In this document: one piece after another, positions 10,754 through 38,824 of the stretch | Position numbering within the stretch: position 1 is the stretch's first letter | How the letters are laid out: every line of letters starts with the position of its first letter | Assembly: GCA_913060465.1 (NCBI GenBank) | Contig: CAJXTR010000001.1 | Span: 1-62,352, forward strand | DNA length: 62,352 nucleotides | Direction of reading: 5' to 3' | From: an uncultured Cryomorphaceae bacterium | Lineage (GTDB): Bacteria; Bacteroidota; Bacteroidia; Flavobacteriales; Schleiferiaceae | The notes under the pieces: generated by a model | Told to the model about the DNA's origin: nothing | Databases searched by the model: none | Seen by the model: only the letters and a program-made list of their open reading frames with translations | Made by a program: the position numbers and the translations under genes

Positions 10754-11638
10754 GTGGAAAGTAGGTATTCAATAAAAGATTTAGAACAACTGAGTGGCAT
10801 CAAGGCGCATACTTTGCGGGCTTGGGAGCAACGTCACAAGTTGATCATACCTAAGCGTACTAGTACTAATATTCGTTTTTACGGCGATGATGATCTACGT
10901 ACGGTGTTGAATACGTCCGTTTTGTTAGATGCCGGATACAAGATTGGACAGATTGCCAAATTCACTTCATCTGAGCTCAGTGCAAAGGCCTTAGAGGAAA
11001 GTCCTTACACTGGAGCCTATACTTATGAGTTGAATGAACTTAAAATGGCTACGTTGAACTTTGATTTGCCGAGGTTTGAATCCGTAATGAGCCATTGTAT
11101 ATCTGAGTTCGGTGTTCACAAGACTTTCCAAGAGATAATAGGTGATTACATTCAAGAGCTAGGCAAGCTTTGGTTAGCGGGCAATGTAAGCATATCACAA
11201 GAGCACTTTATGTCATCGCTCATCCGTCAGAAACTGTTTTCTGCCATCGACTCACTTCCTAGCGTCGCTGTGCCGAAGAGCGGCTCTTATGCATTGTTTC
11301 TTCCTGCAAACGAACTACATGAGTTAGGACTTCTATACCTCACGTATGTATTAAAGGAGCGGGGAGAGCACGTATATTATCTAGGACAAAGTCTTCCTAA
11401 GGAATATCTTGAGGACCTTCTTAATCATAAACGAATTACCCATCTCATTTCTGCGTTTACTACCAATCCAGATGTAGAACAATTGGACGATTACCTCGTG
11501 GAATTAGATGATATGGTGGAAGGAAATGGTGTTAAAGTATTGCTTACTGGGTATCAATTTTCACAATTTGAACCCAAATCTGCTTATCGCAATATTGAGA
11601 TTCATGAGTCTTTAAAGGACTTGAGCGCCGCTATTTAA
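10754..11638 (+). CDS. MerR-family, B12-binding light-responsive repressor (CarH/LitR type)
   Basis: GTG start. N-terminal MerR HTH (YSIKDLEQLSGIKAHTLRAWEQRHKLIIPKRT). W-x9-E-H motif (W140 LAGNVSISQ E150 H151). Cobalamin lower-ligand motif E-x-H-x-x-G (NELHELG, H189). Rossmann-like C-terminal half. Confidence 0.8.
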   Translation: MESRYSIKDLEQLSGIKAHTLRAWEQRHKLIIPKRTSTNIRFYGDDDLRTVLNTSVLLDAGYKIGQIAKFTSSELSAKALEESPYTGAYTYELNELKMATLNFDLPRFESVMSHCISEFGVHKTFQEIIGDYIQELGKLWLAGNVSISQEHFMSSLIRQKLFSAIDSLPSVAVPKSGSYALFLPANELHELGLLYLTYVLKERGEHVYYLGQSLPKEYLEDLLNHKRITHLISAFTTNPDVEQLDDYLVELDDMVEGNGVKVLLTGYQFSQFEPKSAYRNIEIHESLKDLSAAI

Positions 11639-11645
11639 TTTTTTT

Positions 11646-11734
11646 ACTGTTTGTTTAATAATTTTTCTAAAATGTTTGACAAAATGTTCAAACACTTTGT
11701 TTAACTTTATACTCGGAATCGTTAAACAAACAGA
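11646..11734 (+). promoter_or_regulatory. reiterated TGTTTG/CAAACA operator-like array upstream of the ECF sigma-crt operon
   Basis: 12-bp perfect inverted repeat CTGTTTGTTTAA (11647..11658) / TTAAACAAACAG (11722..11733). 10-bp perfect inverted repeat TTTGTTTAAC (11696..11705) / GTTAAACAAA (11721..11730). Central imperfect palindrome TGTTTGA-n8-TCAAACA (11673..11694). Confidence 0.6.
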
Positions 11735-11736
11735 TT

Positions 11737-12243
11737 ATGTCTACTGCAGAATTCGGTCAACTGATTGATAGAGAATATGAATTTCTAAATCAGCTTGCTA
11801 TGAAATTGACCAAGCAACGCGATGATGCTGAGGATCTAATTCAAGATACCTATTACAAAGCCTTGAAAAACAAGGATAAATTTGCGACAGGTACAAACTT
11901 GAAAGGGTGGCTGTACACAATCATGAAAAATACGTTCATCAACAACTACAGAAGAAAGCGTAACCAAAACACTTTCGTTGATGAAACAGATTCCCAGTTC
12001 TTTTTGAATTCGAAAGAGTCTAGCAAGAGCACGCACACTGAAGCCAACGTTGATAATGAGTACATCATGAATCAGATTGATTCCATTGAGAAGCATTACA
12101 CTGAGGCATTTTTTATGCATTACGAAGGCTATAAGTATGAAGAAATCGCTGAGCATTTCAACATTCCTCTAGGTACGGTTAAATCAAGAATATTCTTGGC
12201 CAGACAGAAGATGATGGAAAAATTAGGCGACCTTCGTTACTAG
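11737..12243 (+). CDS. ECF-subfamily RNA polymerase sigma-70 factor
   Basis: 168 aa. Region 2 (DAEDLIQDTYYKALKN...GWLYTIMKNTFINNYRR) and region 4 (YEEIAEHFNIPLGTVKSRIFLARQKM). No anti-sigma ORF follows. Confidence 0.88.
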   Translation: MSTAEFGQLIDREYEFLNQLAMKLTKQRDDAEDLIQDTYYKALKNKDKFATGTNLKGWLYTIMKNTFINNYRRKRNQNTFVDETDSQFFLNSKESSKSTHTEANVDNEYIMNQIDSIEKHYTEAFFMHYEGYKYEEIAEHFNIPLGTVKSRIFLARQKMMEKLGDLRY

Positions 12244-12266
12244 TCCTCACACCTAAACGCCCCAAC

Positions 12267-13742
12267 ATGAAATCAGTAATAGTAATCGGCTCTGGATTCG
12301 CCGGTTTGAGTTCAGCTTCCTTTCTAGCGAAGGCTGGATATGACGTAACATTATTAGAGAAAAACGATCAATTAGGAGGCCGTGCCCGAGTTTGGGAAAC
12401 GGAAGGCTATAAATTTGATATGGGCCCTAGTTGGTACTGGATGCCCGATGTATTTGAACGTTACTTCAAATGTTTTGGATACAATGTTGAGGATTTGTAC
12501 CATTTAGTTCGATTGAATCCATCTTACAGAGTGGTCTTCGGCCCTAACGACCACGAGGACCAAAGCGCAAACATGGAAGAACTTGAAGCCATGTTTGATC
12601 GTCTTGATCCAGGCTCTAGTGTACGTTTGCGTAAGTTTCTTAAAGAGGCTGCGTATAAATATGAGGTTGGTATTAAAGACCTCGTACACAAGCCGTCGAG
12701 ATCAATTTTAGAATTTGCAGATATTAGAATTCTGAAAGGATTGTTCCAATTGGACCTTCTCAAAGACATGCGAAAGCATGTGGCAGAGGTAAGTACTCAT
12801 CCGAAGCTCAAAGCAATCATGGAGTTTCCAGTACTTTTCCTTGGTGCACTTCCACAGAATACACCAGCTCTGTACAGCTTGATGAATTACGCCGACATGT
12901 CTCTCGGTACCTGGTACCCTCAAGGGGGCATGAATAAAATCATCGAGGCTATGGTAAAGGTTGCCAAAGAGCAGGGGGTTAAGTTTCGTACGAATGCAGA
13001 AGTAACCGGGTTTAAGTATGCGGGCAACAAAATTGTCGGTGTCACTACAAAAAAAGGTGCCTTTAGTGCCGACATAGTAGTCGCAGGAGCTGATTACCAC
13101 CATATTGACCAAAATGTCAGCGGGGCAGACAAGCGAGAGTATACAGAGCAATATTGGGAGAAAAGAAAAATGGCACCCTCATCATTGCTCTTTTATTTAG
13201 GTATTAAAGGAGAGGTACCCAACGTGTTACACCACAACCTTTTCTTTGATCACGAACTCGATCAGCATGCTGGTGAACTCTATACCACTCCCCAATGGCC
13301 TACGAAACCATTGTTTTATGCAAGTGCGCCTTCGAAAACAGATAAATCGATTGCACCTGAAGGTTGTGAAAACATGTTCCTACTCATGCCTACAGCCCCT
13401 GGTTTAGGTGGTGATACCGAAGAAGTTCGAGAGAAATACTACAACATTATGATGGACCGACTTGAACAATTTACGGGTTCAAGCATTAGAGATAGAGTAG
13501 AGGTTAAGCGCAGTTTTGCATTTTCAGAATTTAAATCTGAATACAACAGCTTTAAAGGAAACGCCTACGGCCTAGCCAATACACTTGATCAGACGGCAAT
13601 ACTAAAGCCAAGATTGAAAAGTAAGAAAGTAAGTAACCTTTATTTCGCAGGTCAACTTACCACACCAGGGCCGGGAGTCCCCCCAACCTTGATAAGTGGA
13701 GAAGTGGTCAGCAAAGAAATAGCTAAAGACTTCAAACTGTAA
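12267..13742 (+). CDS. crtI: phytoene desaturase
   Basis: FAD dinucleotide fold VIVIGSGFAGLSSA...LEKNDQLGGRA; C-terminal GQLTTPGPGVP; 491 aa. Confidence 0.92.
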   Translation: MKSVIVIGSGFAGLSSASFLAKAGYDVTLLEKNDQLGGRARVWETEGYKFDMGPSWYWMPDVFERYFKCFGYNVEDLYHLVRLNPSYRVVFGPNDHEDQSANMEELEAMFDRLDPGSSVRLRKFLKEAAYKYEVGIKDLVHKPSRSILEFADIRILKGLFQLDLLKDMRKHVAEVSTHPKLKAIMEFPVLFLGALPQNTPALYSLMNYADMSLGTWYPQGGMNKIIEAMVKVAKEQGVKFRTNAEVTGFKYAGNKIVGVTTKKGAFSADIVVAGADYHHIDQNVSGADKREYTEQYWEKRKMAPSSLLFYLGIKGEVPNVLHHNLFFDHELDQHAGELYTTPQWPTKPLFYASAPSKTDKSIAPEGCENMFLLMPTAPGLGGDTEEVREKYYNIMMDRLEQFTGSSIRDRVEVKRSFAFSEFKSEYNSFKGNAYGLANTLDQTAILKPRLKSKKVSNLYFAGQLTTPGPGVPPTLISGEVVSKEIAKDFKL

Positions 13743-14578
13743 TGAAAGCCCTATTCGACAGCATTAGCATACGATCGAGCCGAATGGTTACGAAGGCTTA
13801 TAGTACTTCGTTCTCACTAGGTATTCTTGGTTTAGACAGGAAATACCACGATCCAATCTATGCGATTTACGGTTTTGTCCGATTCGCAGATGAAATCGTC
13901 GACTCTTTTGAGGGATATGCTCAAAAAGAACTCCTAGAAGACTTTTGGAAGGACACCCACAAAGCACTTGAACACAAGATCAGTTTGAATCCTATACTCA
14001 ATAGTTTTCAGCAAGTTGTTCATGCATACAACATTGACCTCGACCTTATTGAAACCTTCCTCAAGTCCATGGAAATGGATTTGTATAAAAACGAATACGA
14101 CGAGGCAGGCTACAAAGCCTATATCCTTGGCAGTGCCGAAGTAGTAGGCCTTATGTGTTTGAAGGTATTTGTTGATGGTAATGAGGAAAAATACCAGCAG
14201 CTCAAGAAGCCTGCGATGCAGTTAGGATCAGCCTTCCAGAAGATCAACTTCCTCCGCGACCTAAATGCAGACTACCATAGTCTAGGCAGAACCTACTTCC
14301 CAGGCGTGGACTTAAATAACTTCAACGAAACGGTTAAGGCTGAGATAGAAGCGGATATCGACATCGACTTCAAGGCGGGCTATGAAGGCATTAAACAGTT
14401 GCCGAAGGGTGCCCGATTCGGGGTGTACATTGCCTATGTTTATTACTACAGTCTCTTCAAAAAGATTGAGAAGACACATTGTGATTTGATTTTAAATGAA
14501 CGTGTTAGAATTAGCAATAAAAGAAAGTATGGCTTATTCTTGAGTTCATATTTACGACATACCATTAACTGGATTTAA
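13742..14578 (+). CDS. crtB: phytoene synthase
   Basis: Squalene/phytoene synthase fold (YGFVRFADEIVD, MEMDL, GSAEVVGLM, QKINFLRDL). Start overlaps the crtI stop (TAATG). Confidence 0.9.
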   Translation: MKALFDSISIRSSRMVTKAYSTSFSLGILGLDRKYHDPIYAIYGFVRFADEIVDSFEGYAQKELLEDFWKDTHKALEHKISLNPILNSFQQVVHAYNIDLDLIETFLKSMEMDLYKNEYDEAGYKAYILGSAEVVGLMCLKVFVDGNEEKYQQLKKPAMQLGSAFQKINFLRDLNADYHSLGRTYFPGVDLNNFNETVKAEIEADIDIDFKAGYEGIKQLPKGARFGVYIAYVYYYSLFKKIEKTHCDLILNERVRISNKRKYGLFLSSYLRHTINWI

Positions 14579-14580
14579 TA

Positions 14581-15111
14581 ATGCTTGAACAAGTTATCCT
14601 GGTCGATGAGCAAGACAATGCTCTGGGACTGATGGAGAAAATGGAAGCGCATCGCCTGGCGAAACTGCACCGTGCATTCTCTGTTTTCGCCATGAACGAC
14701 AAAAATGAAATTCTATTACAACGCCGTGCACTGCACAAGTACCATAGCGGTGGGCTGTGGACAAACACGTGTTGTTCTCATCCAAGAGATGGAGAGACCG
14801 TGGAGGCAGCTGCGAAACGACGTTTGATGGAGGAGATGGGCTTTACCTGTGATGTGAAACGCATCTTTTCATTCATCTACAAAGCGGAACTAGACAACGA
14901 TCTTACCGAGCATGAATTAGACCATGTACTCATCGCCCGTTACAACGATGATCCACAAGTCAATCCTGAAGAGGTTGACAGTTTCGATTGGAAATCAGTG
15001 GAATGGGTAGCCCAAGACATGAAAGACCATCCCGAAAAGTATACTGAATGGTTTAAAATCATTTATGACAGATTCTTAACCTATTGGATGAATGAAGATC
15101 ACGGTCTCTAG
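14581..15111 (+). CDS. idi: isopentenyl-diphosphate delta-isomerase, type 1 (Nudix)
   Basis: HRAFSVF...LLQRRA..K....GLWTNTCCSHP...E..AAKRRL.EE.G motif series typical of IDI-1. Confidence 0.9.
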   Translation: MLEQVILVDEQDNALGLMEKMEAHRLAKLHRAFSVFAMNDKNEILLQRRALHKYHSGGLWTNTCCSHPRDGETVEAAAKRRLMEEMGFTCDVKRIFSFIYKAELDNDLTEHELDHVLIARYNDDPQVNPEEVDSFDWKSVEWVAQDMKDHPEKYTEWFKIIYDRFLTYWMNEDHGL

Positions 15112-15502
15112 AAAAGCACATTTTAATGCAGCACACCGGTTGCATAATCCCGCGTTAAGTGCTGCGGAGAATCAATCGGTATTCGGCAAGTGCAACAACG
15201 AATACTTTCATGGACACAACTACGAATTGATTGTTAGTGTGACGGGTGAGGTGGATCCTAAAACAGGCTATCTCATTGACATGAAGGTATTGCGAGACCA
15301 TATAAAGACAGAGGTAGAGGATTACCTGGATCATAAGAATTTGAATATTCAGGTCGAAGAATTCAAAACCCTTAACCCAACCGCCGAACACATTGCCTAT
15401 GTGATTTGGAACCGACTTAAAGCTGTGCTCAACCCGGATCTTGAACTTTCAGTAAGACTTTATGAAACGCCAAGAAACTTCGTGGATTACAGCGGGTTAT
15501 AA
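15092..15502 (+). CDS. 6-pyruvoyl-tetrahydropterin synthase family protein (PTPS/QueD fold, eukaryote-like C-x5-HGH type)
   Basis: AHFNAAHRLHNPALS...VFGKCNNEYFHGHNYEL...LDHKNLN. Closely resembles animal PTPS (FGKCNN..GHGHNY). Overlaps the idi 3' end by 20 nt. Confidence 0.85.
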   Translation: MKITVSRKAHFNAAHRLHNPALSAAENQSVFGKCNNEYFHGHNYELIVSVTGEVDPKTGYLIDMKVLRDHIKTEVEDYLDHKNLNIQVEEFKTLNPTAEHIAYVIWNRLKAVLNPDLELSVRLYETPRNFVDYSGL

Positions 15503-15514
15503 AAAATTTTTCTG

Positions 15515-16186
15515 ATGACGACACACGACAATAAGTACACACCGGAAGAACTCGAGCATTTGGTCGAGGCACATCTAGGAACCTCCATTGATACTCCATT
15601 GAGAAAGGATGCTTTTGATAAAACCGATGAGGAGAAAATTGAAATCATTGCTGAGAAATTCCACGAGATCATGGAAGTACTTGGTTTGGATTTAACGGAT
15701 GATAGCCTTCAAGGCACTCCGCTTCGCGTCGCAAAAATGTATGTTAAAGAGGCTTTTGCTGGTTTAAACCCTGATAACAAGCCAGAGATGAAGCTCTTCG
15801 AGAATAAGTTTCGATACAACGAGATGCTCATCGAGAAAGACATAAAGGTACACTCACACTGTGAGCACCATTTTGTTCCCATTTTAGGCAAGTGCCATGT
15901 AGCTTATATCCCTAATGGAAAAGTAGTGGGTTTGAGTAAGTTGAACAGGATTGTGCGTCATTACGCGAAGCGCCCACAGGTTCAAGAGCGTCTTACCCGT
16001 CAAATCGCAGAAGCATTGATGGAAGGCCTTCATACACAGCATGTAGCGGTTTATTTAGAGGCCGATCACATGTGTGTAAAAACTAGAGGTATAGAAGACG
16101 ACCACAGTTCAACCATTACCATGGCATTCCACGGTGATTTTGAGAACGAGGCAAACAAACGTGCGTTTTTAGAGTCTTTTAAGTAA
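15515..16186 (+). CDS. folE: GTP cyclohydrolase I (type 1)
   Basis: [39 protein letters not shown] signature blocks. Confidence 0.93.
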
Positions 16187-17490
16187 TGCAAGAAGTTTCG
16201 GTCTTTTGGTTTCGAAGAGACTTGCGTCTTGAGGATAATGCGGGTCTTTGGAAAGCCCTCAAATCTGGCAATCCAGTTTTACCCATTTTCATCTTTGATA
16301 AGACCATCCTTGAGAAGCTCGAGGATAAAAGCGATGCTAGAGTGTCCTTTCTTCATCAAACCTTAACCGCGCTAAATGCTCAGTTGCAAGGTTTGGGCAG
16401 CGGGCTTCATGTATTTCATAGTACGCCATTGGAAGTCATGGAGGAATTGGCCGCCACTTATCGTGTTAAAAATATCTTCTTCAATAGAGATTATGAACCC
16501 TATGCTAAACTCCGGGATAAAGAGGTTTACGATTTCTGGACGGAAAAAGGAGTAGGGGTCGTCGGTGCCAAAGACCATGTGATTTTTGAGAAGGATGAAG
16601 TCGTAAAAGCAGATGGGACCCCGTATTTAGTTTTTAGCCCGTATGGACGCGCTTGGCGAAAGTTACTTACACCTTACCAATACAAAGCGTACCCGAACGC
16701 CACGTATTTCGGTAATTTCTTCCCATGTGAAGGAACACGTGTACCTGAGCTTGAGGCTATGGGCTTTGAGAAGACGGCAATTCCTATACCTTCGAGTGAA
16801 ATCGATACGTCGATTATTAAAACGTACGATGAGACTAGAAACTTTCCAGCACAAAAGAGGGGGACTACTCGACTAGGCATTCACTTGCGCTTTGGCACAC
16901 TATCAGTTCGCAGGTTGCTCGAATATGGATTGAAGTACAATGACACTTTTGTCAATGAACTCATATGGCGGGACTTCTATCAAATGGCTTTATATAATTT
17001 TTCTGAGAGTCGTGAGAAAGCAATCAAGCCTAAGTACGACTTGATTCGTTGGGAAAACAACGAAGCGCATTTCGAGGCTTGGTGCAAGGGAAAGACTGGC
17101 TACCCCATAGTTGATGCGGGAATGCGAGAATTGAATGCGACAGGTTACATGCACAATAGAGTACGAATGATTGTAGCGAGTTTCTTGACGAAACACCTTT
17201 TGATAGATTGGAGGTGGGGAGAGGCCTACTTTGCAGAAAAGTTGTTAGACTTTGATTTGGCTTCGAATGTAGGTGGTTGGCAATGGGCGAGTGGCAGTGG
17301 CTTAGATGCTGCACCGTACTTCCGTGTTTTCAACCCAACTGCCCAGATGGAAAAGTTCGACAAAGACTTGAAGTACATCAATAAATGGGTCCCAGAGTTA
17401 AAGACACACTTGTATCCTCAGCCTATTGTGGAACACAAATGGGCGCGAGAACGCTGTTTGGAGCGGTTTAAAGAGGCGTTGAACGCGTAA
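16186..17490 (+). CDS. cryptochrome/photolyase family protein (deoxyribodipyrimidine photolyase)
   Basis: N-terminal FWFRRDLRLEDNAGL. FAD-binding C-terminal TGYPIVDAGMRELNATGYMHNRVRMIVASFL...WQWASGSGLDAAPYFRVFNP. Start overlaps the folE stop. Confidence 0.9.
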   Translation: MQEVSVFWFRRDLRLEDNAGLWKALKSGNPVLPIFIFDKTILEKLEDKSDARVSFLHQTLTALNAQLQGLGSGLHVFHSTPLEVMEELAATYRVKNIFFNRDYEPYAKLRDKEVYDFWTEKGVGVVGAKDHVIFEKDEVVKADGTPYLVFSPYGRAWRKLLTPYQYKAYPNATYFGNFFPCEGTRVPELEAMGFEKTAIPIPSSEIDTSIIKTYDETRNFPAQKRGTTRLGIHLRFGTLSVRRLLEYGLKYNDTFVNELIWRDFYQMALYNFSESREKAIKPKYDLIRWENNEAHFEAWCKGKTGYPIVDAGMRELNATGYMHNRVRMIVASFLTKHLLIDWRWGEAYFAEKLLDFDLASNVGGWQWASGSGLDAAPYFRVFNPTAQMEKFDKDLKYINKWVPELKTHLYPQPIVEHKWARERCLERFKEALNA

Positions 17491-17498: not shown

Positions 17499-18920
17499 TT
17501 ATTCCGTCTCAGCGGCAGTATATCCAAAAAGTTGCTTTTCCTTAATTACGTTGTCGACGTATTTGGGTAGACATTCTTGCCATCCATCTTCACCACAGCG
17601 TATTTTACGAAGCACCTCGCGTGAGAATATATTGGTAATGCTCTCGTCGTATTCTTCGATGTCCAAGATTCTGTTGTGGAAAATGAGGTAATCAATAATT
17701 GGACGGAAGCGCGGATGCACTTCAGCATCCTCTTTTCGAGTAACCTTAGATGTGGCATTTTCTTGGAAGGGGTATACAAGGATTTTAAGATCCTTAGAAA
17801 AGATTCGACCGAAGGCTTCGAGAATACCCCCTTGGAGACCACGGTAGTATTTTTCGTTGAACAATTCAGAAAGGTTGTTTACCCCCATGACGAGTCCTTG
17901 ACGCTTTTTAGAGAATCGACCGAAATAATCTACAAGCTTGTAGTATTCCTGGTAGTTAGAGATCAGTACAGTTTGGCCGAGGCTACATAATATCTCAGCT
18001 CGATCTAAGAAATCTTGCTCATCTAACTCACCGTCTGCAAGGAGGTTGTTCAAGGTAATCTCCCAAAGAACCACGGTTTTATCCGGGTTTACCTTCTTGT
18101 CATTAGCAAAAACCTCGTAACCTCGCTTAATCATGTCCATGTTCACGCGTGTCACCGGTCTGAATGAACCGCGCATGGCCAGAATGTGTTTTTTGTAAAG
18201 TAATTCAGCTGGCAAAAGGTTATTTCCTTCAGGGCCAAAAATCACTGCATCGGTATAGCCATTTTTGATCAATTGCAATGACATCAATCTGTTGTCGACC
18301 GTCTCAAAATCAGGGCCTGAGAAATTGATCAAATCAATCTCAATAGCAGCATGGTCGATATTGTCGTAGAGGCTTTTTAGAAGTTCTTTACAGTCCGTAT
18401 AGAGGTTATAGGCTCCATGAATCAAGTTCGTACCCAATCTACCCACCGTTTCTTGCTGGTGTTTTGCCTCATTCTCATGAAGTCTGAAATGCAAGAAAAT
18501 ATCATTGGTCGCTTTATCAGGAGCCGTTTGAAAACGAATACCCATCCAACCGTGACCTTTGAAAGTCTTCGCGAAGTTGATAGTCGCCACAGTGTTGGCG
18601 TAAGCAAAGTATTTTTTCTCAGGGTGGAGGGCGCGATCTAGTCGCTTTTCTATCAAACTGTATTCATGCTTGAGCATCTTTCGAACACGACTCTCAGTAA
18701 CATAACGTCGATCTTCCTCGATTCCGTAGATATCATCTGAAAACGCTTTATCGTAGGCACTCATTGCCTTTGCGATGGTTCCAGAGGCTGCACCTGCTCT
18801 AAAAAATTCACGAACAGTTTCCTGCCCAGCACCAATTTCCGCAAACGTACCGTAGATATCGGGGTTTAGGTTAATTTTAAGTGCCTTTTGAGCGGTAGTA
18901 AGAATGACGCGGTCCTTCAT
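17499..18920 (-). CDS. conserved hypothetical cytoplasmic protein (family not recognised)
   Basis: Long uninterrupted 473-aa ORF with no signal peptide or TM segment. It has its own -7 box and appears monocistronic. N-terminal FAEIGAGQE motif. Confidence 0.6.
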   Translation of the reverse strand: MKDRVILTTAQKALKINLNPDIYGTFAEIGAGQETVREFFRAGAASGTIAKAMSAYDKAFSDDIYGIEEDRRYVTESRVRKMLKHEYSLIEKRLDRALHPEKKYFAYANTVATINFAKTFKGHGWMGIRFQTAPDKATNDIFLHFRLHENEAKHQQETVGRLGTNLIHGAYNLYTDCKELLKSLYDNIDHAAIEIDLINFSGPDFETVDNRLMSLQLIKNGYTDAVIFGPEGNNLLPAELLYKKHILAMRGSFRPVTRVNMDMIKRGYEVFANDKKVNPDKTVVLWEITLNNLLADGELDEQDFLDRAEILCSLGQTVLISNYQEYYKLVDYFGRFSKKRQGLVMGVNNLSELFNEKYYRGLQGGILEAFGRIFSKDLKILVYPFQENATSKVTRKEDAEVHPRFRPIIDYLIFHNRILDIEEYDESITNIFSREVLRKIRCGEDGWQECLPKYVDNVIKEKQLFGYTAAETE

Positions 18921-19025: not shown

Positions 19026-19793
19026 ATGATATTTATGGGCACTGGCACCTCACAGGGTGTTCCTGTCATTGGATGTAGTTGTGATGTATGTACGAGTAAG
19101 GACCCAAAAGATCAAAGAACTAGGTCTTCCGTGCATTTTTCCTTTGAACAAGCTAGTATTCAGATTGATACAGGTCCCGATTTTCGTAATCAGATGTTGC
19201 GAGAGAAATTGGCCGATGTAGATGCCGTCTTCTTTACCCATGAGCATCAAGATCACATTGCGGGGCTCGACGATGTTCGACCTATGATATTTCGCACTAA
19301 AAAACCCATGCCTTTATATGGTCAAGAGCGAGTCATTAATAGGATAAAAAAGGCGTTTCATTATGCGTTTGAAGAAAACCCTTATCCCGGGGCTCCAAAG
19401 CTTGACACCACCGCCATTGACGATGTTTCTTTCGTGGATATCAATGGATTACACGTTGTTCCTATCCCTATTTTTCATGGGAAGCTCCCCATTTTGGGCT
19501 ATAGGATAGGGGATACGGCGTATATCACGGATGTAAAATCAGTTCCAGATTCGTCCTTGAAGTTACTTCACGGACTTAAAACATTGGTTTTTGATGCGTT
19601 ACACGATTATCCGCATCAAAGTCATTGTACGCTAGATGAGGCTATAGAATGGGCTAAGATTATAGATGCGAAGGAGACCTATTTCATTCACTTAAGTCAT
19701 CATATGGGAACACATGCAGCAACGGAGCAAAGGTTGCCCGAAGGAATGTTCGTCGCCCACGACGGACTTCGACTGAAGGTGAGTTTAGATTAA
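19026..19793 (+). CDS. MBL-fold metallo-hydrolase (PhnP/YycJ-like)
   Basis: ORF 19008..19793; the ATG at 19026 gives MIFMGTGTSQGVP. H-x-H-x-D-H motif THEHQDH; cysteine cluster GCSCDVC near the N-terminus. Confidence 0.8.
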   Translation: MIFMGTGTSQGVPVIGCSCDVCTSKDPKDQRTRSSVHFSFEQASIQIDTGPDFRNQMLREKLADVDAVFFTHEHQDHIAGLDDVRPMIFRTKKPMPLYGQERVINRIKKAFHYAFEENPYPGAPKLDTTAIDDVSFVDINGLHVVPIPIFHGKLPILGYRIGDTAYITDVKSVPDSSLKLLHGLKTLVFDALHDYPHQSHCTLDEAIEWAKIIDAKETYFIHLSHHMGTHAATEQRLPEGMFVAHDGLRLKVSLD

Positions 19794-21052
19794 AGAGCGA
19801 GTAGACTGCCTTTCGCAAAAACTGCTTTCACATTGTGTTGGGTTGAAGAACCTCGGAAAGGATTGTTGAAGGCTTTACTTGCAAACCCTGTCCAATCCTG
19901 ACCTTCTTTACCTATGATGGTAAACTCAGCCTCCATGCCTTCTACAATACTTAAAACGGGTAGCCCTAAAAGTGCTCTTGGATTTGTTGATAGTAACTCT
20001 TGAATGCGCTCCGGTGAAATTTTCACTTGATCAAGTAGCTGACAAACAGCACCTTCAAATCCAGCCATCCCAAATTCCGCGTTATCGAATTCGCATTGCT
20101 TTTGCTCGATATCTTTAGGCAGATGATCAACCGCTAAACAATCCACAGTACCATCCAAAACGGCATCTAAGAGTGCTTGCTGATCTTCTTTATTGCGTAG
20201 AGGTGGACTAACCTTTAATGCTGTATCGTAGTTTACTAAAGCCTCCTCAGTGAAGAGTAAGTGATGAATGTTTACACTACAAGTAACGTTGAGGCCTTTT
20301 TGCTTGGCCTCACGAATGGCATCGATACCTTTAGCGGTGCTTACACTAGCAATATGTAAAGCTCCTTCGGTATACTCGAGAATATTCAAATCACGTTGTA
20401 TGCGCGCGTATTCAGAAAGGGAAGGTATGCCCTTTAATCCAACGTAGGTGCTTGTTATTCCCTCGTTCATTTTACCACCAGCAGCGAGATCGTGATCTTC
20501 CGGATGAACCATGATACGACCGAACGGCTTGCTGTAGAGTAGTGCCAATTTCAGCAAATTCGCATTTGCTAAGCCGTGCTTGTAATCTCCAAAGAGTTCA
20601 CTTCCATGCTCGTACATATCAAACATTTCGCTGAGTTCCTCACCCTTGCGCTCTTTGGTTGCAGTACCTACTGGAACTAGATGGATAGGGCTCTGGTCAC
20701 TCTTGTTTGAAATGAATTCAATTCCGGTTTTATTGTCTGAAAATGGCGCTCCATTACTTACTACACCTACTGCCGTGAAGCCCCCAGCCGCCGCTGCAGC
20801 GGCACCTGAACGAAGGGTTTCGGAATCTTCATTACCAGGCTCTCCTAAATCGCTATGTAACTCAGCAAACCCCGGATAAAGGTCAGCGCCAGCGGCATCC
20901 CAAGTATTTCCTTCGAAAGAAGTTATACTGCCTATTTGAATAATGGAATCTCCTTCAACTAATACATCAACAGTTTGATCGTGGTAAGGACTGTTGGTGT
21001 CAACGATGTGCGCGTTCTTAATCAGGAGCTGCATCTCAGAAAATTTTGACAA
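19790..21052 (-). CDS. dihydroorotase-like amidohydrolase with non-canonical metal-ligand motifs
   Basis: Class-I DHOase-like over its full length (PGFAELHSDLGEPG...AAAGGFTAV...VHPEDHDL...LHIASVST...VDHLPK). The HxH, second-His and DHAPH positions read LHSD, HIA and DHLPK. Confidence 0.7.
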   Translation of the reverse strand: MSKFSEMQLLIKNAHIVDTNSPYHDQTVDVLVEGDSIIQIGSITSFEGNTWDAAGADLYPGFAELHSDLGEPGNEDSETLRSGAAAAAAGGFTAVGVVSNGAPFSDNKTGIEFISNKSDQSPIHLVPVGTATKERKGEELSEMFDMYEHGSELFGDYKHGLANANLLKLALLYSKPFGRIMVHPEDHDLAAGGKMNEGITSTYVGLKGIPSLSEYARIQRDLNILEYTEGALHIASVSTAKGIDAIREAKQKGLNVTCSVNIHHLLFTEEALVNYDTALKVSPPLRNKEDQQALLDAVLDGTVDCLAVDHLPKDIEQKQCEFDNAEFGMAGFEGAVCQLLDQVKISPERIQELLSTNPRALLGLPVLSIVEGMEAEFTIIGKEGQDWTGFASKAFNNPFRGSSTQHNVKAVFAKGSLLAL

Positions 21053-22499
21053 AAATAACGGCTATTAGTGCGAAAAGCAATGCAAAGAGCAAGGCAATTT
21101 TGGAATAGTCCCTTTGAAGGCCCGAGAATACTCGATTTTCGATGGATTTATTTTCCATACTTCCCAAGGCTAACTTCTCTTCCAGTCGGGTAATATTTTC
21201 AGTATAAGCGTCTTCACCTAAAAATGGTCCCTGTTCCAAATCGAAGGAATTATTCCTGTAAGACCATTGCTTAAGTGCGGTGTAGTAGGGGTGGAACTCA
21301 TTCTTAATCTCAAATCCTTGCCAATAAACACGTTGTGAATTGGATATTTGAAGACCAGCCAAAACTCCTTGGTCACTTACCAACAATGGCTCTAAACTCT
21401 CCTCAAGAATCTTTGCTGATTCAGGTTGTGGCCAATTATTCCTGTTCGAAGCACCAATAAAGTACGTTGCGTAAAATGGATGGTTCAGGTTGGGTCTTGG
21501 TTGGGTAATTCGCTCAGAATCAACCGCCATACCAGGAAATACCAAAACAGTCTGTGCTTGGGAGAAGAGGGAGGTCGGAACAAAATCAAAGCCATAAAGT
21601 ATTGCTACTATTGATGGCTCTGTGATTACGTTGACTGATTCTGTGTACAACGAAATAGTATCTACATTGAACACCTTGGATAATCGAATTGCTTGAGGCC
21701 GTTGATCTTCCGTGCGATAAAAAAGAAAGCGTTTTACTCCACCGCGACGAACGATACTGATAGAGTTGTCCTCATTTAAGGAGTCGGCGTTGTGAACCAC
21801 CGTGTATTCTTGATCTTTTTTGAGCAACTCTAATTGGACCGAGATCTCAGAAATAGAATCCCATTCAAGCACTAATTGTCTTTCTGCGAACATACGCCAC
21901 GTACCCGCTGCGCCCTCAGTGCGAAACAGCAAGGCGTCTTTATTATACTCGTAGGAAACTTGGGTATTTAGAATTTCTCGACGTTCGGGCAATAAGTACC
22001 TTTCAAACGTCGAATCAAGTTGCGAGAAACCAAAAGAGAGCAGCGTGCCAGGCACTTGTGGCAAAGGCTCGAGGCTCGAAGGCCACTGGGCCAACACATC
22101 CGCAACCGCATCTTTCTGAATTCCATTTAGTTCAGTACCACCGCGGAGGTGCAAATCCATCGTTCCTTCTGGCAAAAGATCGATAAGGTTCGAGAGCCAC
22201 TGCTGTTTAGATTCCCAACCTGCCGGATGATTATCAACAATGATGGTGGTTGACGGAGATGAAAACCTCGGTTTGGCCAATGCCATGACAATAGCTAAAA
22301 TGGTAAAAACCCGCATCAAAAGAACAACAAGGTCTCGTAGTTTATGCCGCTTGCGTTGTTTAGCTTGAAAAGTATTAAGCCACATCAATGAAGGTATGAC
22401 TATGGGCTTGGCTGGTCTTCGTCCAATCATGTGGATGATGATCGGAATTAAAGCAGCCAAGCTGGCCCATAACCATTGTGAATGCTCAAACCCTATCAT
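21036..22499 (-). CDS. BatA_N (N-terminal double-transmembrane) domain membrane protein
   Basis: N-terminal WLWASLAALIPIIIHMIGRR plus a second TM (VVLLMRVFTILAIVMALA), a large extracytoplasmic region and a C-terminal TM anchor. A 17-nt overlap with the downstream gene. Confidence 0.65.
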   Translation of the reverse strand: MIGFEHSQWLWASLAALIPIIIHMIGRRPAKPIVIPSLMWLNTFQAKQRKRHKLRDLVVLLMRVFTILAIVMALAKPRFSSPSTTIIVDNHPAGWESKQQWLSNLIDLLPEGTMDLHLRGGTELNGIQKDAVADVLAQWPSSLEPLPQVPGTLLSFGFSQLDSTFERYLLPERREILNTQVSYEYNKDALLFRTEGAAGTWRMFAERQLVLEWDSISEISVQLELLKKDQEYTVVHNADSLNEDNSISIVRRGGVKRFLFYRTEDQRPQAIRLSKVFNVDTISLYTESVNVITEPSIVAILYGFDFVPTSLFSQAQTVLVFPGMAVDSERITQPRPNLNHPFYATYFIGASNRNNWPQPESAKILEESLEPLLVSDQGVLAGLQISNSQRVYWQGFEIKNEFHPYYTALKQWSYRNNSFDLEQGPFLGEDAYTENITRLEEKLALGSMENKSIENRVFSGLQRDYSKIALLFALLFALIAVIFVKIF

Positions 22500-22924
22500 T
22501 TTAATCTGGCATGCTCAAGGGTTATAGGAAGGTTTTCGGGCGTTGAATTCAACTTGATTTGACCGATAACGGTGATTACATCGTCTGTTAACAGTTCTTG
22601 TGGTGAATCAAATTGGATTTCCATTACACTCTCTGGTCCAGCGGCACCGCAGAAAAAACAGGAGGAAAAGGGGAAAGCACTGAGCGCGTATACGTGATCC
22701 ACAGGATCTAATACGATGGCATAGCCGGTGACTACAACTGAGGTTCCGCCCCAATCTTGACGTTGTTGGGAAGTCCATTTTGGTACTTGGACCCAAGTTG
22801 CCGTGGGTTCATCGTAAACCTCTTCGAAGCTTATACCTTCTAGTGCACTCCAATACAGGCGCTCTTGCGCCGCAACGTTTAAAGTACAGATGGTTAAAGC
22901 TACGAGCAACACTAGTTTTTTCAT
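22496..22924 (-). CDS. secreted small protein, DUF3299-like, CxxC motif (paralog A)
   Basis: Signal peptide MKKLVLLVALTICTLNVAAQ. Conserved block VTGYAIVLDP...YALSAFPFSSCFFCGAAGPESVMEI shared with the upstream paralog. Confidence 0.6.
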   Translation of the reverse strand: MKKLVLLVALTICTLNVAAQERLYWSALEGISFEEVYDEPTATWVQVPKWTSQQRQDWGGTSVVVTGYAIVLDPVDHVYALSAFPFSSCFFCGAAGPESVMEIQFDSPQELLTDDVITVIGQIKLNSTPENLPITLEHARLK

Positions 22925-23343
22925 TATCCGTGGAATTCAGCTTGTTGAATGATGAAGAACAATCGATAGGGATCTTTCTCATTAAAGACTAAGATGCCTT
23001 TAACCACGACGAATTGGTCTGTAATTAAATTATCCGGTTGATCCTTAAAGACCAATTCTACCACCGTGTTCGGTGGCGCATTTCCACAAAAGAAACAGCT
23101 CGAAAATGCATATCTACTCAATGCGTATTGCTTCGTTTGTACATCCACAGGAACGAGATATCCTTGAAGAATTACTTCTTGGTTTTTAAAACCATCAAGC
23201 CAAGAAGGAAACTGTGGCGAATACAGACCATCTGGTGATGTGGAGTAGGGAACTGCTAACAAATCCCATGAGACGACTTGTTGCGCTTGCAAGGTCCCCG
23301 TAAACCCAAGAGTGATAAGGGCAAGTACATAAAGTCTTTTCAT
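22924..23343 (-). CDS. secreted small protein, DUF3299-like, CxxC motif (paralog B)
   Basis: ORF 22924..23397; the ATG at 23343 gives MKRLYVLALITLGFTGTLQAQ (signal peptide). LQGYLVPVD...YALSRYAFSSCFFCGNAPPNTVVEL. Confidence 0.6.
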   Translation of the reverse strand: MKRLYVLALITLGFTGTLQAQQVVSWDLLAVPYSTSPDGLYSPQFPSWLDGFKNQEVILQGYLVPVDVQTKQYALSRYAFSSCFFCGNAPPNTVVELVFKDQPDNLITDQFVVVKGILVFNEKDPYRLFFIIQQAEFHG

Positions 23344-23345
23344 AA

Positions 23346-24416
23346 TTACTTCCGGATTTGCATTAGGAATAGTGATAGCAGCCAAAGGAATACACAACCC
23401 ACGTAATCGAGATAATTCACAGTGCCTTCGAAGTTAGTTTGAATCAATCTGACAGATAGTAAAAGACCCGCTAAACCAAAAAGACTGTAAAGACCTGATG
23501 AAGCGAATACAACGGAAACCCGTGACCATTTGAGGTTCGTTAAATAATGCTTTGTAGCACGTTCGTTTCCACCTATATTCCAGAGCATTGCCAAGAAAAG
23601 TAGCGCCATGACAACACTCAATACAGTTCCTAATTTTCTGCCTGATACTAACGTCGGCTCCCATTGTTTTTGGATTTGACCGAAAACAAATACTGGAAAT
23701 GCCCCTTGCTCATCCGCACGTTTAGAAAGAGTCCCGGGGAGCATCAGCATGGCCGACTTTGACTTCAATTTCAATAATAGCGAGGTGTAGGTACGTTCTG
23801 TTTGATGATGCAGGTTGAGGTAGGCTTCGTTAGTGGTGAAAAAACAATCTTGATCTGCTTTGCGATTCGCGGCTAACAGACCGACCACCTTGAAGGGGTG
23901 CGCATGCCCTTCACCGCGCGAATCGCTACCATGAGAGGATTGCACTTCATCTCCCAACTTAATTTGAAGTTTCTGTGCTAGGGAGGCCGAAACTACAATT
24001 TCATGTGGGTTATCCGGTAAAGCGCCCTCAATCAAATCAATACCGAACCAATCATAGTAGTTGTCCTCAACACCAACCAAGGGAAAACCGTTGATATTGT
24101 CGCCCATTGATAACGCGCAAGACTGCTGAACAAGTGGATGTTTGGTCCAAAAATCATAAGATTCTCCGCTGATGTTGCCCGTAGGGTTTTCCAAACGGTA
24201 GAGTGCGTTTGCGATGATTTGTATAGGGCTTCCTTTGTAGCCAATGATTACATCGACCAATTCTGCACTTTCCTGCCAAGTCGAATACAAATACTGCTCA
24301 CCGGCCTTTGCAGCTTTTATAAGCAAACCTGTGGTAAATGCCAGTACAAACACTACAAGCAGCAACATCCATCTGCGTCTGAGCTGTAACCACCATATGT
24401 AGAACACCTTTGTCAT
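23346..24416 (-). CDS. ABC transporter permease, MacB/FtsX type (1 TM, periplasmic domain, 3 TM)
   Basis: N-terminal TM, a periplasmic domain of about 200 aa containing the His-rich stretch SSHGSDSRGEGHAHPF, and three C-terminal TM helices. A 4-nt start/stop overlap with the ATPase gene. Confidence 0.75.
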   Translation of the reverse strand: MTKVFYIWWLQLRRRWMLLLVVFVLAFTTGLLIKAAKAGEQYLYSTWQESAELVDVIIGYKGSPIQIIANALYRLENPTGNISGESYDFWTKHPLVQQSCALSMGDNINGFPLVGVEDNYYDWFGIDLIEGALPDNPHEIVVSASLAQKLQIKLGDEVQSSHGSDSRGEGHAHPFKVVGLLAANRKADQDCFFTTNEAYLNLHHQTERTYTSLLLKLKSKSAMLMLPGTLSKRADEQGAFPVFVFGQIQKQWEPTLVSGRKLGTVLSVVMALLFLAMLWNIGGNERATKHYLTNLKWSRVSVVFASSGLYSLFGLAGLLLSVRLIQTNFEGTVNYLDYVGCVFLWLLSLFLMQIRK

Positions 24417-24940
24417 AAATGCAGCTGTTTAGCGGTAGCAAAAGTTTTCTTTAAGCGCTCATCATGCGTCACTACTACGACTGATCCCTTTGGCTTACTC
24501 GCTACCCAAGCAGAAATTAATGTCATGGCCGCTTCGGCCCAATCATCGTCTAAAGCACTCGTGGGCTCATCTAACAATAACACATCCGTATTTGCATGCA
24601 GTGCAGCTAAAAGTGAGAACCGTTGGAGCTGCCCTATACTTAGTTGGTGGGGGTATCGATGGAGCAATTGGTCCAATCCGAGACTCGAAAAATCCACATC
24701 CTTAGCCCGAGCAACCTTCAACTGTTCGCTCATTTTTAAATACGGGATCCAGGTAGGCGTTTGAGGCATCAACGCCGTTTTCAAGACATTTTGCTCGAAC
24801 CCTTCGGCTTTTAGTTCGCCGTGTAACAATCGTAATAAAGTCGTCTTTCCAGTACCTGAAGCACCTGTAACGACCATAATACCTGCGGACAACTCAATTC
24901 GAGGATAAGTGATTGTATGTGTACCTAGTTTGACGATCAT
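24413..24940 (-). CDS. compact ABC transporter ATP-binding protein (about 175 aa)
   Basis: ORF 24413..24982; the ATG at 24940 (MIVKLG) lies just after the DUF456 stop. Walker A GASGTGKTT, Q-loop MPQTP, signature LSIGQLQR, Walker B LLLDEPTSALD, H-loop VVVTHD. Confidence 0.85.
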   Translation of the reverse strand: MIVKLGTHTITYPRIELSAGIMVVTGASGTGKTTLLRLLHGELKAEGFEQNVLKTALMPQTPTWIPYLKMSEQLKVARAKDVDFSSLGLDQLLHRYPHQLSIGQLQRFSLLAALHANTDVLLLDEPTSALDDDWAEAAMTLISAWVASKPKGSVVVVTHDERLKKTFATAKQLHL

Positions 24941-25392
24941 CCCACTAACGCATATGAATAGAGGAGTGGGGCAGCGATACAATAGGCCAATTTCATTACC
25001 ATTCCCGTAAATAAACCCATCACTGCAAAAACTGCAGCCTTCAAGCTTTTGAATACATTCCCAGTATGCAACATTTCACCAACGAGTGCACCTACAAATG
25101 CGGAGAGTATGAAAAATGGTGTTACCAGCCCTATAACTAAACCGATGAGTGCGCCTCGGGAGGCCGCCTTAGAACCACCGCCCATTTTCGTGAAAAGCGA
25201 GGGCAGAAGATAATCGGCAACAAACACCACGACTCCGATAATTGCCCAAAGCCAAAGGTTCATGCCTTCAAACGACTCGAAATAATATTGTGATAACACC
25301 AAGGCAGCTGCGGTTAAGAGTGGTCCAGGAAGCACCGGCAACACTGCGCCCACAATCCCTGCGACAAACAATAAAACAATTGCAACTTCCAT
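24937..25392 (-). CDS. DUF456-like small integral membrane protein
   Basis: 151 aa with four hydrophobic spans and a Gly-rich loop (FTKMGGGSKAASRGA). First gene of the minus-strand operon. Confidence 0.55.
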   Translation of the reverse strand: MEVAIVLLFVAGIVGAVLPVLPGPLLTAAALVLSQYYFESFEGMNLWLWAIIGVVVFVADYLLPSLFTKMGGGSKAASRGALIGLVIGLVTPFFILSAFVGALVGEMLHTGNVFKSLKAAVFAVMGLFTGMVMKLAYCIAAPLLYSYALVG

Positions 25393-25451
25393 GAGGTTAA
25401 ATATACAATCATGCCCGCTGTCAAACCGTATTATTCCAATAGTTTTACCTC

Positions 25452-36720: not shown

Positions 36721-36735
36721 TTCCCCTACCCGATT

Positions 36736-38817: not shown

Positions 38818-38824
38818 AGCCTAT

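Follow-up and report, generated by a model that had tools for sequence, protein, structure and literature searches.

Gene layout

The window, the whole stretch of 62,352 nucleotides that we analysed (contig CAJXTR010000001.1 of an uncultured Cryomorphaceae bacterium, assembly GCA_913060465.1), carries seven tightly packed genes on the minus strand between positions 19790 and 25392. All seven open reading frames lie where a first-pass annotation of this DNA had placed them, and its domain calls (DUF456, ABC ATPase, MacB-type permease, BatA_N, dihydroorotase) are borne out by Pfam and NCBIfam matches. In the order of transcription, the features are:

25398..25405, minus strand: conserved TATATTTA element, 6 nt upstream of the g1 ATG, kept in nearly all Schleiferiaceae loci
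24937..25392, minus strand: g1, DUF456 membrane protein, first gene of the array (Pfam DUF456, E 6e-24)
24413..24940, minus strand: g2, compact ABC nucleotide-binding subunit of 175 aa, core ATPase of the module described below (Pfam ABC_tran, E 3e-15)
23346..24416, minus strand: g3, MacB-fold (type VII ABC) permease (Pfam MacB_PCD, E 3.2e-8)
22924..23343, minus strand: g4, secreted OB-fold protein with a CFFCG motif (alignment, AF2 model, fold search)
22496..22924, minus strand: g5, paralogue of g4 with an SCFFCGxAGPE motif (sequence alignment)
21036..22499, minus strand: g6, BatA_N or double-transmembrane-anchor protein without a VWA domain (Pfam BatA, E 1e-13; TIGR02226)
19790..21034, minus strand: g7, dihydroorotase-family protein with degenerate metal and substrate sites (TIGR00857, orthologue alignment)

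The start of g2 overlaps the stop of g1 (junction -4, ATGA), and the junctions that follow are -4 (g2/g3), +2 (g3/g4), -1 (g4/g5) and -4 (g5/g6). The values first proposed hold from g2/g3 to g5/g6, but the g1/g2 junction is -4 and not +2. The -17 proposed for g6/g7 is obtained only with TTG at 21052 as the start of g7; with ATG at 21034 the junction is +1, and this start agrees with the N-termini of nine aligned orthologues. On this alignment, ATG at 21034 is the true start.

Conservation of the array and of its core

The array is kept in 39 loci from genomes and about 23 from metagenomes, all Schleiferiaceae/Cryomorphaceae (metagenome scan for related loci with an alignment of 17 sequences), and because it is conserved across these same-family loci it is not a chance arrangement. 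However, in the Schleiferiaceae loci the entire neighbourhood is collinear, and genes for ClpC, an exonuclease, an MBL protein, a 473-aa unknown protein and a photolyase are as collinear as the array itself. Thus, synteny within this family is uninformative on function, and we rejected it as functional evidence.

Comparison of about 60 more distant loci points to a smaller conserved core, consisting of the ABC ATPase (g2), the MacB-fold permease (g3) and one or two small secreted OB-fold proteins (g4, g5). The order ABC, permease, small protein(s) recurs in about 45 distant loci and at least five different genomic contexts, with a g2-type ATPase gene directly 5' of the permease gene in 32 of the distant loci. 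Most other lineages carry the module without BatA_N or dihydroorotase genes; in three sublineages it lies directly upstream of a dihydroorotase gene, with differing intervening genes, and in one lineage it lies behind lgt (prolipoprotein diacylglyceryl transferase), with a Kdo transferase gene facing it. Besides Bacteroidota, the branch to which the module belongs has members in Sphingomonadales and Deinococcus. On balance, we favour the four-gene module g2-g5, smaller than the seven-gene array, as the functional unit, and the annotation of the window is corrected from a seven-gene system to a four-gene module with three neighbours.

ATPase and permease

The g2 translation is complete in its motifs (Walker A GASGTGKT, Q-loop, LSIGQ signature, Walker B LLLDEP and H-loop THD). 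The permease g3 has the topology of MacB, LolCDE and HrtBA, with TM1, a periplasmic domain and three further TM helices (2-53, 240-284, 299-328 and 335-353 in the AF2 model), and its best Foldseek matches are LolCDE, MacB and HrtB (E ~1e-9). The MacB part of an earlier MacB/FtsX assignment is therefore upheld by MacB_PCD and the topology, but the FtsX C-terminal domain (PF02687) has no Pfam match in g3, whereas the Chondrinema and PA4065 homologues do match. The C-terminal TM bundle of g3 is shortened and diverged. Unlike MacB, g3 has no fused nucleotide-binding domain and no MacA or TolC partners.

Profile comparison links the permease to another system. Searched against PDB sequences, the permease profile found nothing significant, but by hhalign the g3 family matches PA4065 of Pseudomonas (taken from locus L124) at 99.0% (E 2.6e-18, 307 columns) and the Chondrinema permease at 99.7%. 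A tblastn search with the Chondrinema permease retrieves the PA4063-66 locus as well as a Phaeobacter locus with the order Fur-ZrgA-ABC-permease-DUF3299. The g3-family periplasmic motifs GxKGSPxQ, PTGNI, HG...H and W.VH are common to PA4065-type permeases and not to MacB or LolC.

The periplasmic domain contains the histidine-bearing stretch SSHGSDSRGEGHAHPF, located there at first reading, which includes the family-invariant H162, G163, H171 and H173. Together with H203, three of these form a set of four invariant histidines (H162/H171/H173/H203); H162, G163 and H203 occur in 39/39 distant permeases and H171 in 97%. Distant permeases additionally bear His/Asp-rich periplasmic insertions with up to 16 His per 40 residues, and loops of this kind are characteristic of zinc or nickel proteins. 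The long His-rich loop is missing from g3 and all Schleiferiaceae copies; in g3 only the four invariant periplasmic histidines remain.

Small secreted proteins

As first proposed, g4 and g5 are paralogues (36% identical) that have FSSCFFCG in common, and the motif CFFCGxAGPE is invariant in their family, which comprises 887 clusters at 50% identity. Within the array g4 is the best-conserved gene, with 71-81% identity across the family; by inspection, its N-terminus is signal-peptide-like. A 5620-aa repetitive protein (P0303) that topped the representative search was judged a compositional artefact. Some homologues are lipoprotein-like, with long linkers.

A suggested DUF3299 affiliation is not reached by Pfam (g4 E 0.012, below threshold; g5 no match; among relatives 6 of 40 match at E<0.01, the best at 1.7e-4), but more sensitive comparison suggests a remote link. 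As small-protein profiles gave nothing significant against PDB sequences, the link to PA4066 required a fold search and hhalign. The AF2 model of g4 (pLDDT 79) has 4hsp (PA4066, DUF3299) as its best PDB fold match (E 6.4e-4, TM 0.54), and the family profile aligns with PA4066 at 90.7% (E 1.3e-6). By these comparisons, g4/g5-type proteins would be remote relatives of PA4066/ZrgE.

Zinc context of relatives and regulation of the window copy

In relatives, the core adjoins genes for Fur-family repressors, COG0523 GTPases, MerC-like proteins and alkaline phosphatases. Chondrinema has MerC and COG0523 genes divergent from ABC-FolE-Fur-permease-small, Polymorphobacter combines two transcriptional repressors (by annotation) and MerC with ABC-permease-small-small, and in metagenome loci MerC, COG0523 and Fur genes adjoin the module. 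MerC-domain genes do so in at least eight loci. A palindrome, TGCAACAnTGTTGCA, lies directly before the ABC gene in four loci (L088, L105, L120, L123), with perfect copies in a fifth (L115). Zur regulons have been described as including COG0523 and Fur-family repressors (PMC2770081). FolE also recurs beside the module in relatives; the list of Zur-regulated paralogues in the same source, as consulted here, does not include it (PMC2770081).

A zinc role for the module family is well supported because of the homology to PA4065 and PA4066, the zinc-starvation neighbours of relatives, the shared palindrome and the His/Asp-rich permease loops. The relatives thus speak for the zinc module first proposed, but the window itself has neither a Zur-type operator nor a zinc marker gene. 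Its copy shows no match to the relatives' palindrome at up to 3 mismatches, and neither the palindrome nor Fur, COG0523 or MerC genes are present in the window or any Schleiferiaceae locus examined. As the long His loop is also missing there, the zinc link of the window copy is drawn by homology alone.

Upstream of g1 lies an intergenic region at 25393-25451. In the Schleiferiaceae upstream regions inspected (29-59 nt), no operator-like palindrome occurs and only a promoter-like box is present: the TATATTTA element, kept even in loci with an intergenic region of just 29 nt. This is likely a Bacteroidota-type -7 promoter box; a scan for sigma-70 promoters and terminators returned counts at or below shuffle expectation and was uninformative. 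In Schleiferiaceae, a conserved promoter appears to drive the module in the absence of the Fur-family operator that relatives have.

Neighbouring genes

The first gene, g1, is absent from a Schleiferiaceae sublineage (L014, L016, L018, L039, L062 and L072) and from all distant loci, and is probably a lineage-specific accessory or neighbour. MerC proteins occupy the position of g1 in relatives. DUF456 as a homologue or analogue of MerC was rejected, with an hhalign probability of 0.1%.

Like Bacteroides BatA, g6 has the N-terminal double-transmembrane BatA_N/TIGR02226 domain; it differs in matching by this domain only, with no VWA match and no MoxR, DUF58 or BatB-E neighbours. In Flavobacteriales it pairs consistently with the dihydroorotase-like g7. 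The BatA_N gene is missing from L078-type loci, and Flavobacterium degerlachei has the pair but not the module.

The dihydroorotase-family protein g7 scores 286.5 bits against TIGR00857 (cut-off 279). Its metal-ligand motifs are altered, as had been noticed: compared with the solved type I dihydroorotases 2z00 and 3mpg, HxH is replaced by HSD, the substrate Arg by Gly, the fourth-ligand His by Ser and the second substrate-binding His (H308) by Lys, so that g7 lacks the full binuclear-metal ligand set (HxH, bridging Asp/Lys, His, His, Asp) and the substrate Arg/His. The same degeneration is found in orthologues from Flavobacterium, Sphingobacterium, Chitinophagaceae and Mucilaginibacter, and in Sphingobacterium the gene stands alone. 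As the altered motifs are common across Bacteroidota, g7 is a core gene and not, as had been proposed, a zinc-sparing backup linked to the module. It resembles Pseudomonas PyrC' (the inactive dihydroorotase subunit of class A ATCase) and PyrC2, in which zinc ligands and the substrate-binding Arg/His are also replaced, and differs from both in having no adjacent pyrB, no detected Zur site and core status across the phylum. Zur-regulated PyrC2 of Pseudomonas lacks zinc ligands and is nevertheless active (PMC2770081). Thus, the activity of g7 is not to be judged from sequence, and we withdrew an 'inactive' label based on motifs.

We conclude that g1, g6 and g7 are probably co-transcribed neighbours in a streamlined genome and not components of the module. 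For g6 and g7, however, the tight overlaps and the module-dihydroorotase adjacency in three sublineages leave room for a functional link.

Discussion

Our data make it somewhat probable that g2-g5 represent an uncharacterised, Bacteroidota/CxxC-type branch of the Zrg/PA4063-66 family of zinc-starvation ABC systems. A likeness to these Zur-regulated loci had been proposed from the first, and the profile and fold matches to PA4065 and PA4066 bear it out. Like Vibrio ZrgABCDE and PA4063-66, the module has, in this order, genes for a separate nucleotide-binding domain, a four-TM MacB-fold permease and an OB-fold protein of the periplasm (ABC before permease also in L124 and L125); the permeases are homologous to PA4065/ZrgB and the small proteins remotely so to PA4066. 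Fur-family repressors adjoin the relatives of the window module, as in the Zur-regulated systems. In the known systems, zrgABCDE promotes growth when zinc is limiting, and PA4063-66 is under Zur control (PMC9820375, PMC11481552).

The differences define the branch. The His-rich zinc-binding protein ZrgA (DUF2796, PF10986) has no match among the seven window proteins, whereas PA4063 matches at E 1.5e-56, and related loci have no extra reading frame at the ZrgA position; ZrgD also has no counterpart in the window module. In relatives, the His-rich loop is inside the periplasmic domain of the permease instead of in a separate protein, and MerC-like genes are the usual companion in place of ZrgA. 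The OB-fold protein is duplicated (g4, g5), unlike in Zrg/PA4063-66, and C-F-F-C-G-x-A-G-P-E replaces the G-A-C-I-H-x-P-P-P-P of PA4066 and the Phaeobacter protein. PA4066 itself showed no evident zinc binding (PMC11481552), and the window copy, unlike PA4063-66, has no detectable Zur-type operator.

We consider it unlikely that the module is an exporter that rids the periplasm or membrane of a metallophore, a metal-chelate or surplus metal. The fold matches MacB, LolCDE and HrtBA all extrude or extract substrates. To our knowledge, the MacB-type transporters that have been characterised either export their substrates or work in the periplasm. Since, additionally, PA4064-65 of P. aeruginosa has been proposed as a pyochelin-cobalt exporter rather than a zinc importer (PMC11481552), any direction assigned to transport is tentative. 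However, V. cholerae genetic data point to uptake (PMC9820375), no MacA-like adaptor, TolC-like or metallophore-biosynthesis gene lies beside the module in the contexts examined, and the neighbours (Fur-family repressor, COG0523) are of starvation type and not efflux or resistance regulators.

Quite improbable is the original proposal that all seven genes form one metal-scavenging system, in which g7 would be a backup enzyme that needs no zinc, and DUF456 and BatA_N would be membrane components. Overlapping or nearly abutting genes behind a single conserved promoter-like element, the dihydroorotase gene downstream of the module in three sublineages with differing intervening genes, and the precedent of a Zur-regulated, ligand-less and active PyrC2 (PMC2770081) agree with it. 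The array does not behave as one conserved unit, however: DUF456 is lost in a sublineage and all distant loci, BatA_N and dihydroorotase genes exist without the module and most module lineages lack both, the degenerate site is common to orthologues of four Bacteroidota classes or families, and family-wide collinearity extends to unrelated genes.

It is very unlikely that the metal handled by the module is a thiophilic one such as Hg, Cu or Cd and not zinc. The invariant CxxC of the small proteins and the adjoining MerC-domain genes fit such a metal, but no MerA, MerR, CopA or CusF-type genes occur in the loci examined, and the His/Asp-rich loops are of the zinc or nickel type. The co-located COG0523 and Fur-family repressors match Zur regulons (PMC2770081). 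Least probable is a metal-independent role in envelope biogenesis (Lol-like lipoprotein or lipid handling), for which LolCDE is among the best structural matches, one lineage offers an lgt and Kdo transferase context and some small-protein homologues are lipoprotein-like with long linkers, but g3 scores 17.6 bits against a cut-off of 362 for the LolC/E equivalog (NCBIfam TIGR02212), the lgt/Kdo setting comes from one collinear lineage, other lineages repeatedly show His-rich loops and neighbouring Fur, COG0523 and MerC genes, and the permease is homologous to PA4065.

Within the Zrg/PA4063-66 reading, g2 and g3 would form a type VII ABC 'mechanotransmission' machine, in which cytoplasmic ATP hydrolysis moves the periplasmic domain. 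This domain may bind Zn2+ through its invariant His cluster and, in most relatives, also through the long His/Asp-rich loop, and metal would be exchanged between it and the small CxxC OB-fold proteins. The net outcome would be zinc acquisition or allocation under zinc scarcity.

A MacB-fold machine has no obvious ion-import path. A more specific suggestion, which we offer as speculative and rather unlikely, is that the CxxC branch is not an importer but an ATP-driven machine for periplasmic zinc allocation. Its His-cluster permease would load or strip zinc by mechanotransmission and hand it to the CxxC OB-fold shuttles, which would supply metal to client proteins of the periplasm or outer membrane (alkaline phosphatase, for example) or to a MerC-like carrier in the inner membrane. 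In the streamlined marine Schleiferiaceae the machine would have become constitutive and come to share one transcript with a core pseudo-dihydroorotase gene.

The CxxC branch is widespread, and its natural variants are relevant to how Zrg and PA4063-66 work. Informative variants include the His loop built into the permease, CxxC in place of the DUF3299 C-x-H, and MerC-like companions. The module also points to a way in which abundant marine Flavobacteriales might live with zinc at picomolar levels.

Results

Gene array and surrounding clusters

Seven open reading frames were found on the minus strand at 19790-25392, which bears out the array described in the first-pass annotation, and its domain assignments agree with our searches of the individual genes:

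g1, minus strand: DUF456 domain match
g2, minus strand: ABC NBD, compact yet complete (175 aa)
g3, minus strand: permease, MacB_PCD domain match
g4, minus strand: small secreted CxxC protein, weak DUF3299 match (E 0.012)
g5, minus strand: paralogue of g4, no domain found by domain search
g6, 21036-22499, minus strand: BatA_N / TIGR02226
g7, minus strand: dihydroorotase family

One of the junctions reported earlier needs correction, and a second probably does. The first, given as +2, was recomputed as -4 (g1/g2), followed by -4 (g2/g3), +2 (g3/g4), -1 (g4/g5) and -4 (g5/g6). The last (g6/g7) is +1 with an ATG at 21034 or -17 with a TTG at 21052; the earlier -17 is probably wrong, because g7 started at the ATG aligns from residue 1 with nine orthologues. 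Scanning for sigma-70 promoters and terminators was uninformative. The sole conserved stretch in the 29-59 nt upstream region is TATATTTA, 6 nt ahead of the g1 ATG, a putative Bacteroidota -7 promoter box that would yield a nearly leaderless transcript.

Homologues of g3 recovered with the permease as query came from Schleiferiaceae/Cryomorphaceae MAGs only, and the order of all seven genes is kept in 39 genome loci and about 23 from metagenomes. Flanking genes (ClpC, exonuclease/GIY-YIG, MBL-fold, a conserved 473-aa protein and photolyase) are equally collinear; therefore, synteny within the family cannot tell function from inherited gene order. More telling are two differences among the loci: DUF456 is missing in one sublineage (L014, L016, L018, L039, L062, L072), and g6 ranges from 487 to about 770 aa across the family. 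Of the genes in the array, the one for the BatA_N protein evolves fastest by a wide margin: the protein has 487 aa in the window and about 650-770 aa in many relatives (orthologues in L002-L035), and only its C-terminal part can be aligned, at 29-36% identity. The closest genome locus, L001 (CAYNLA010000001.1), with proteins 73-95% identical, carries the label 'uncultured Polaribacter sp.', probably a mis-assignment, since all other relatives are Schleiferiaceae/Cryomorphaceae.

Three further features of the window were recorded:

10754-17490, plus strand: light-response cluster with a MerR/B12-binding (CarH-like) regulator, ECF sigma factor, phytoene desaturase, phytoene synthase, NUDIX, 6-pyruvoyl-tetrahydropterin synthase, GTP cyclohydrolase I and photolyase
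17499-18920, minus strand: the 473-aa protein, no Pfam domain, 84-95% identical across Schleiferiaceae and also kept beside an MBL gene in Flavobacterium
33673-39684, minus strand: SOS-type mutagenesis cassette with an HTH/S24 LexA-like repressor, Y-family polymerase (IMS), SRAP peptidase and a 1015-aa DnaE2-like Pol III alpha

A recurring core in at least five contexts

A g4/g5 profile searched against 1.84 billion cluster representatives (E ≤ 0.001) matched 887 clusters, among which the motif CFFCGxAGPE is almost invariant, and a metagenome scan based on this motif gave 80 loci. ORF calling and profile searches revealed a recurring core order of ABC ATPase, permease and one or two small proteins, seen in at least five different genomic contexts.

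Genomic contexts of the core
A: window-type arrangement
B: CoA-binding (minus strand), then ABC-permease-small-small-hydrolase-BatA-DHOase (dihydroorotase-family gene); shared by the Schleiferiaceae MAG locus L042
C: MFS-FabH-ABC-permease-small-DHOase-MBL, without BatA
D: Lgt-[PhoX]-ABC-permease-small, opposite a Kdo transferase gene
E: zinc-type surroundings (Chondrinema, Polymorphobacter, metagenome loci)

Flavobacterium degerlachei carries BatA-DHOase-...-MBL-473aa with no module upstream, and Sphingobacterium has a DHOase-like gene with neither module nor BatA. On these distributions, g2-g5 form one cassette, g6-g7 a separate Flavobacteriales pair and g1 a lineage-specific addition.

The permease and its rival roles

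In an AF2 model of g3 (pLDDT 75), a long TM1 is followed by a periplasmic domain of mixed alpha/beta structure and then by three helices at the C-terminus; the best PDB fold matches are LolCDE, MacB, HrtBA and YbbP (E about 1e-9). The periplasmic domain spans about residues 45-255. Searching annotated plasmid records by tblastn with g5 led to a homologue in Chondrinema litorale, and tblastn with the permease of that locus in turn retrieved three loci: P. aeruginosa PA4063-66 (ZrgA-family, ABC, permease, DUF3299, then oprG), Phaeobacter (Fur-DUF2796-ABC-permease-DUF3299) and Deinococcus. In profile comparisons, the g3 family scored 99.0% against the P. aeruginosa permease PA4065 (E 2.6e-18) and 99.7% against the Chondrinema permease.

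Periplasmic motifs kept across 39 distant permeases are GxKGSPxQ, PTGNI, GD, H162-G163, H171 and W.VH (H203); H162, G163 and H203 occur in 39/39 and H171 in 97%. Most of these permeases have a variable, extremely His/Asp/Glu-rich insertion after H203 (for example DHDHEGHDHVHEGHNHDQEGHDHDGHDHEGHDHDGHDHDH), reaching 16 His in 40 residues (L104, L097, L042, L113, L074 and others). The window g3 retains the core His residues and has no His-rich insertion, which on this comparison has been lost in the window lineage.

Export is a possible but less likely role, given the MacB fold and the Pseudomonas data. PA4063-66 is Zur-regulated, but its permease has been proposed as a pyochelin-cobalt exporter (PMC11481552). 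A Lol-like role draws on fold similarity and on the lgt/Kdo-transferase context in one lineage; homology to PA4065, together with the metal features, outweighs it.

Small proteins related to DUF3299

The AF2 model of g4 (pLDDT 79) is an OB fold, and among PDB structures it matches PA4066 best, a DUF3299 protein (4hsp; E 6.4e-4, TM 0.54). Profile comparison of the small-protein family gave 90.7% with PA4066 (E 1.3e-6) and 54.9% with the Phaeobacter DUF3299 protein. Whereas these two proteins carry G-A-C-I-H-x-P-P-P-P, g4 and g5 carry S-C-F-F-C-G-x-A-G-P-E at the same place. Polymorphobacter, whose two paralogues read CQFC and CAFC, and Deinococcus, with CPFC, share the CxxC form. Since the match to Pfam DUF3299 has E<0.01 in only 6/40 family members (1.7e-4 at best) and stays below the 22-bit gathering score in all of them, the small proteins are, on these scores, a sister family of DUF3299 and not members in the Pfam sense.

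Outside Bacteroidota, CxxC small proteins accompany the same permease on a Polymorphobacter plasmid (L127, 3236-7060), with two paralogues plus MerC, and on Deinococcus pMP1 (L126, 2788-5095), with a single small-protein gene upstream of the ABC gene.

Zinc context in relatives

The Chondrinema operon reads ABC-FolE-Fur-family repressor-permease-small protein and is divergent from a MerC-domain gene, a COG0523 GTPase gene and a TonB-dependent receptor cluster. The Polymorphobacter locus combines two repressors (by annotation, without a Pfam scan), MerC and ABC-permease-small-small. Among metagenome loci, L088, L090, L113 and L120 have a divergent MerC gene upstream of the ABC gene; COG0523 occurs in L074, L105, L115 and L120, Fur in L105 and L113, and FolE in L074 and L113. 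Clustering of zinc-transport genes with COG0523 genes and a zur repressor gene is an established signature of Zur regulons (PMC2770081), and zrgABCDE supports growth when zinc is limiting (PMC9820375). FolE is treated as no more than a recurring neighbour, because it is absent from the list of Zur-regulated paralogues in PMC2770081 and the window folE belongs to the photolyase cluster; the latter gene is part of the light response, not a zinc marker. A role with thiophilic metals would fit the CxxC motif and MerC neighbours, but the loci examined contained no mer or cop genes. The idea that DUF456 stands in for MerC was rejected.

Two unrelated alkaline phosphatase types adjoin the module in several lineages. 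A PhoA-type enzyme is found in L074, L120 and Deinococcus (L126), and in lineage D PhoX lies directly upstream of the module on the same strand (PhoX in L100, L106, L114, L116, L121, L122). Through these neighbours the module could be connected with the metallation of phosphatases or with the substitution of a zinc enzyme.

In relatives, a 15-bp palindrome, TGCAACAnTGTTGCA, precedes genes of the module as well as those for MerC and COG0523. It lies between MerC and the ABC gene or just ahead of the ABC gene in L088, L105, L120 and L123, with perfect copies in L115 and L123.

Sites of the TGCAACAnTGTTGCA palindrome
L088: 6071-6085
L105: 10913-10965
L115: 1899-1952
L120: 5240-5254
L123: 3758-3772 and 3797-3811

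Nine sites with ≤1 mismatch were observed against about 0.2 expected (a rough estimate for ~1.3 Mb of loci), for a motif derived from four of its own loci and independently confirmed by L115 and L118 only. The palindrome may be the operator bound by the Fur-family repressor encoded alongside. None was found in the window at up to three mismatches, nor in any Schleiferiaceae locus examined, and the 62-kb window encodes no Fur, COG0523, MerC, PhoX or PhoA homologues. Expression of the module could be constitutive in these small marine genomes, or under a control not visible here.

Dihydroorotase-family gene g7

Alignment with solved type I enzymes shows that H-x-H is replaced by H-S-D in g7, the substrate Arg by Gly, a His ligand by Ser and the second substrate-binding His (H308) by Lys. 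Degeneration is at least equal in orthologues from Flavobacterium, Sphingobacterium, Chitinophagaceae, Mucilaginibacter and another Schleiferiaceae lineage, some of them without the module nearby. Because of this shared degeneration and distribution, g7 is a core Bacteroidota gene that did not arrive with the module. PyrC2 is an active dihydroorotase without ligands, and the PyrC' scaffold offers another precedent (PMC2770081, PMC4581275); judged from its sequence, g7 could be a scaffold like PyrC' or, like PyrC2, an enzyme active without the ligands.

Discussion

The original interpretation is partly supported by these comparisons. A zinc-type ABC module, g2-g5, stands, as a variant of the Zrg/PA4063-66 kind that is not categorically new; the seven-gene system with a zinc-sparing enzyme does not. 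The CxxC-type module is widespread, and provides a useful handle on the mechanism of the Zrg/PA4063-66 systems.
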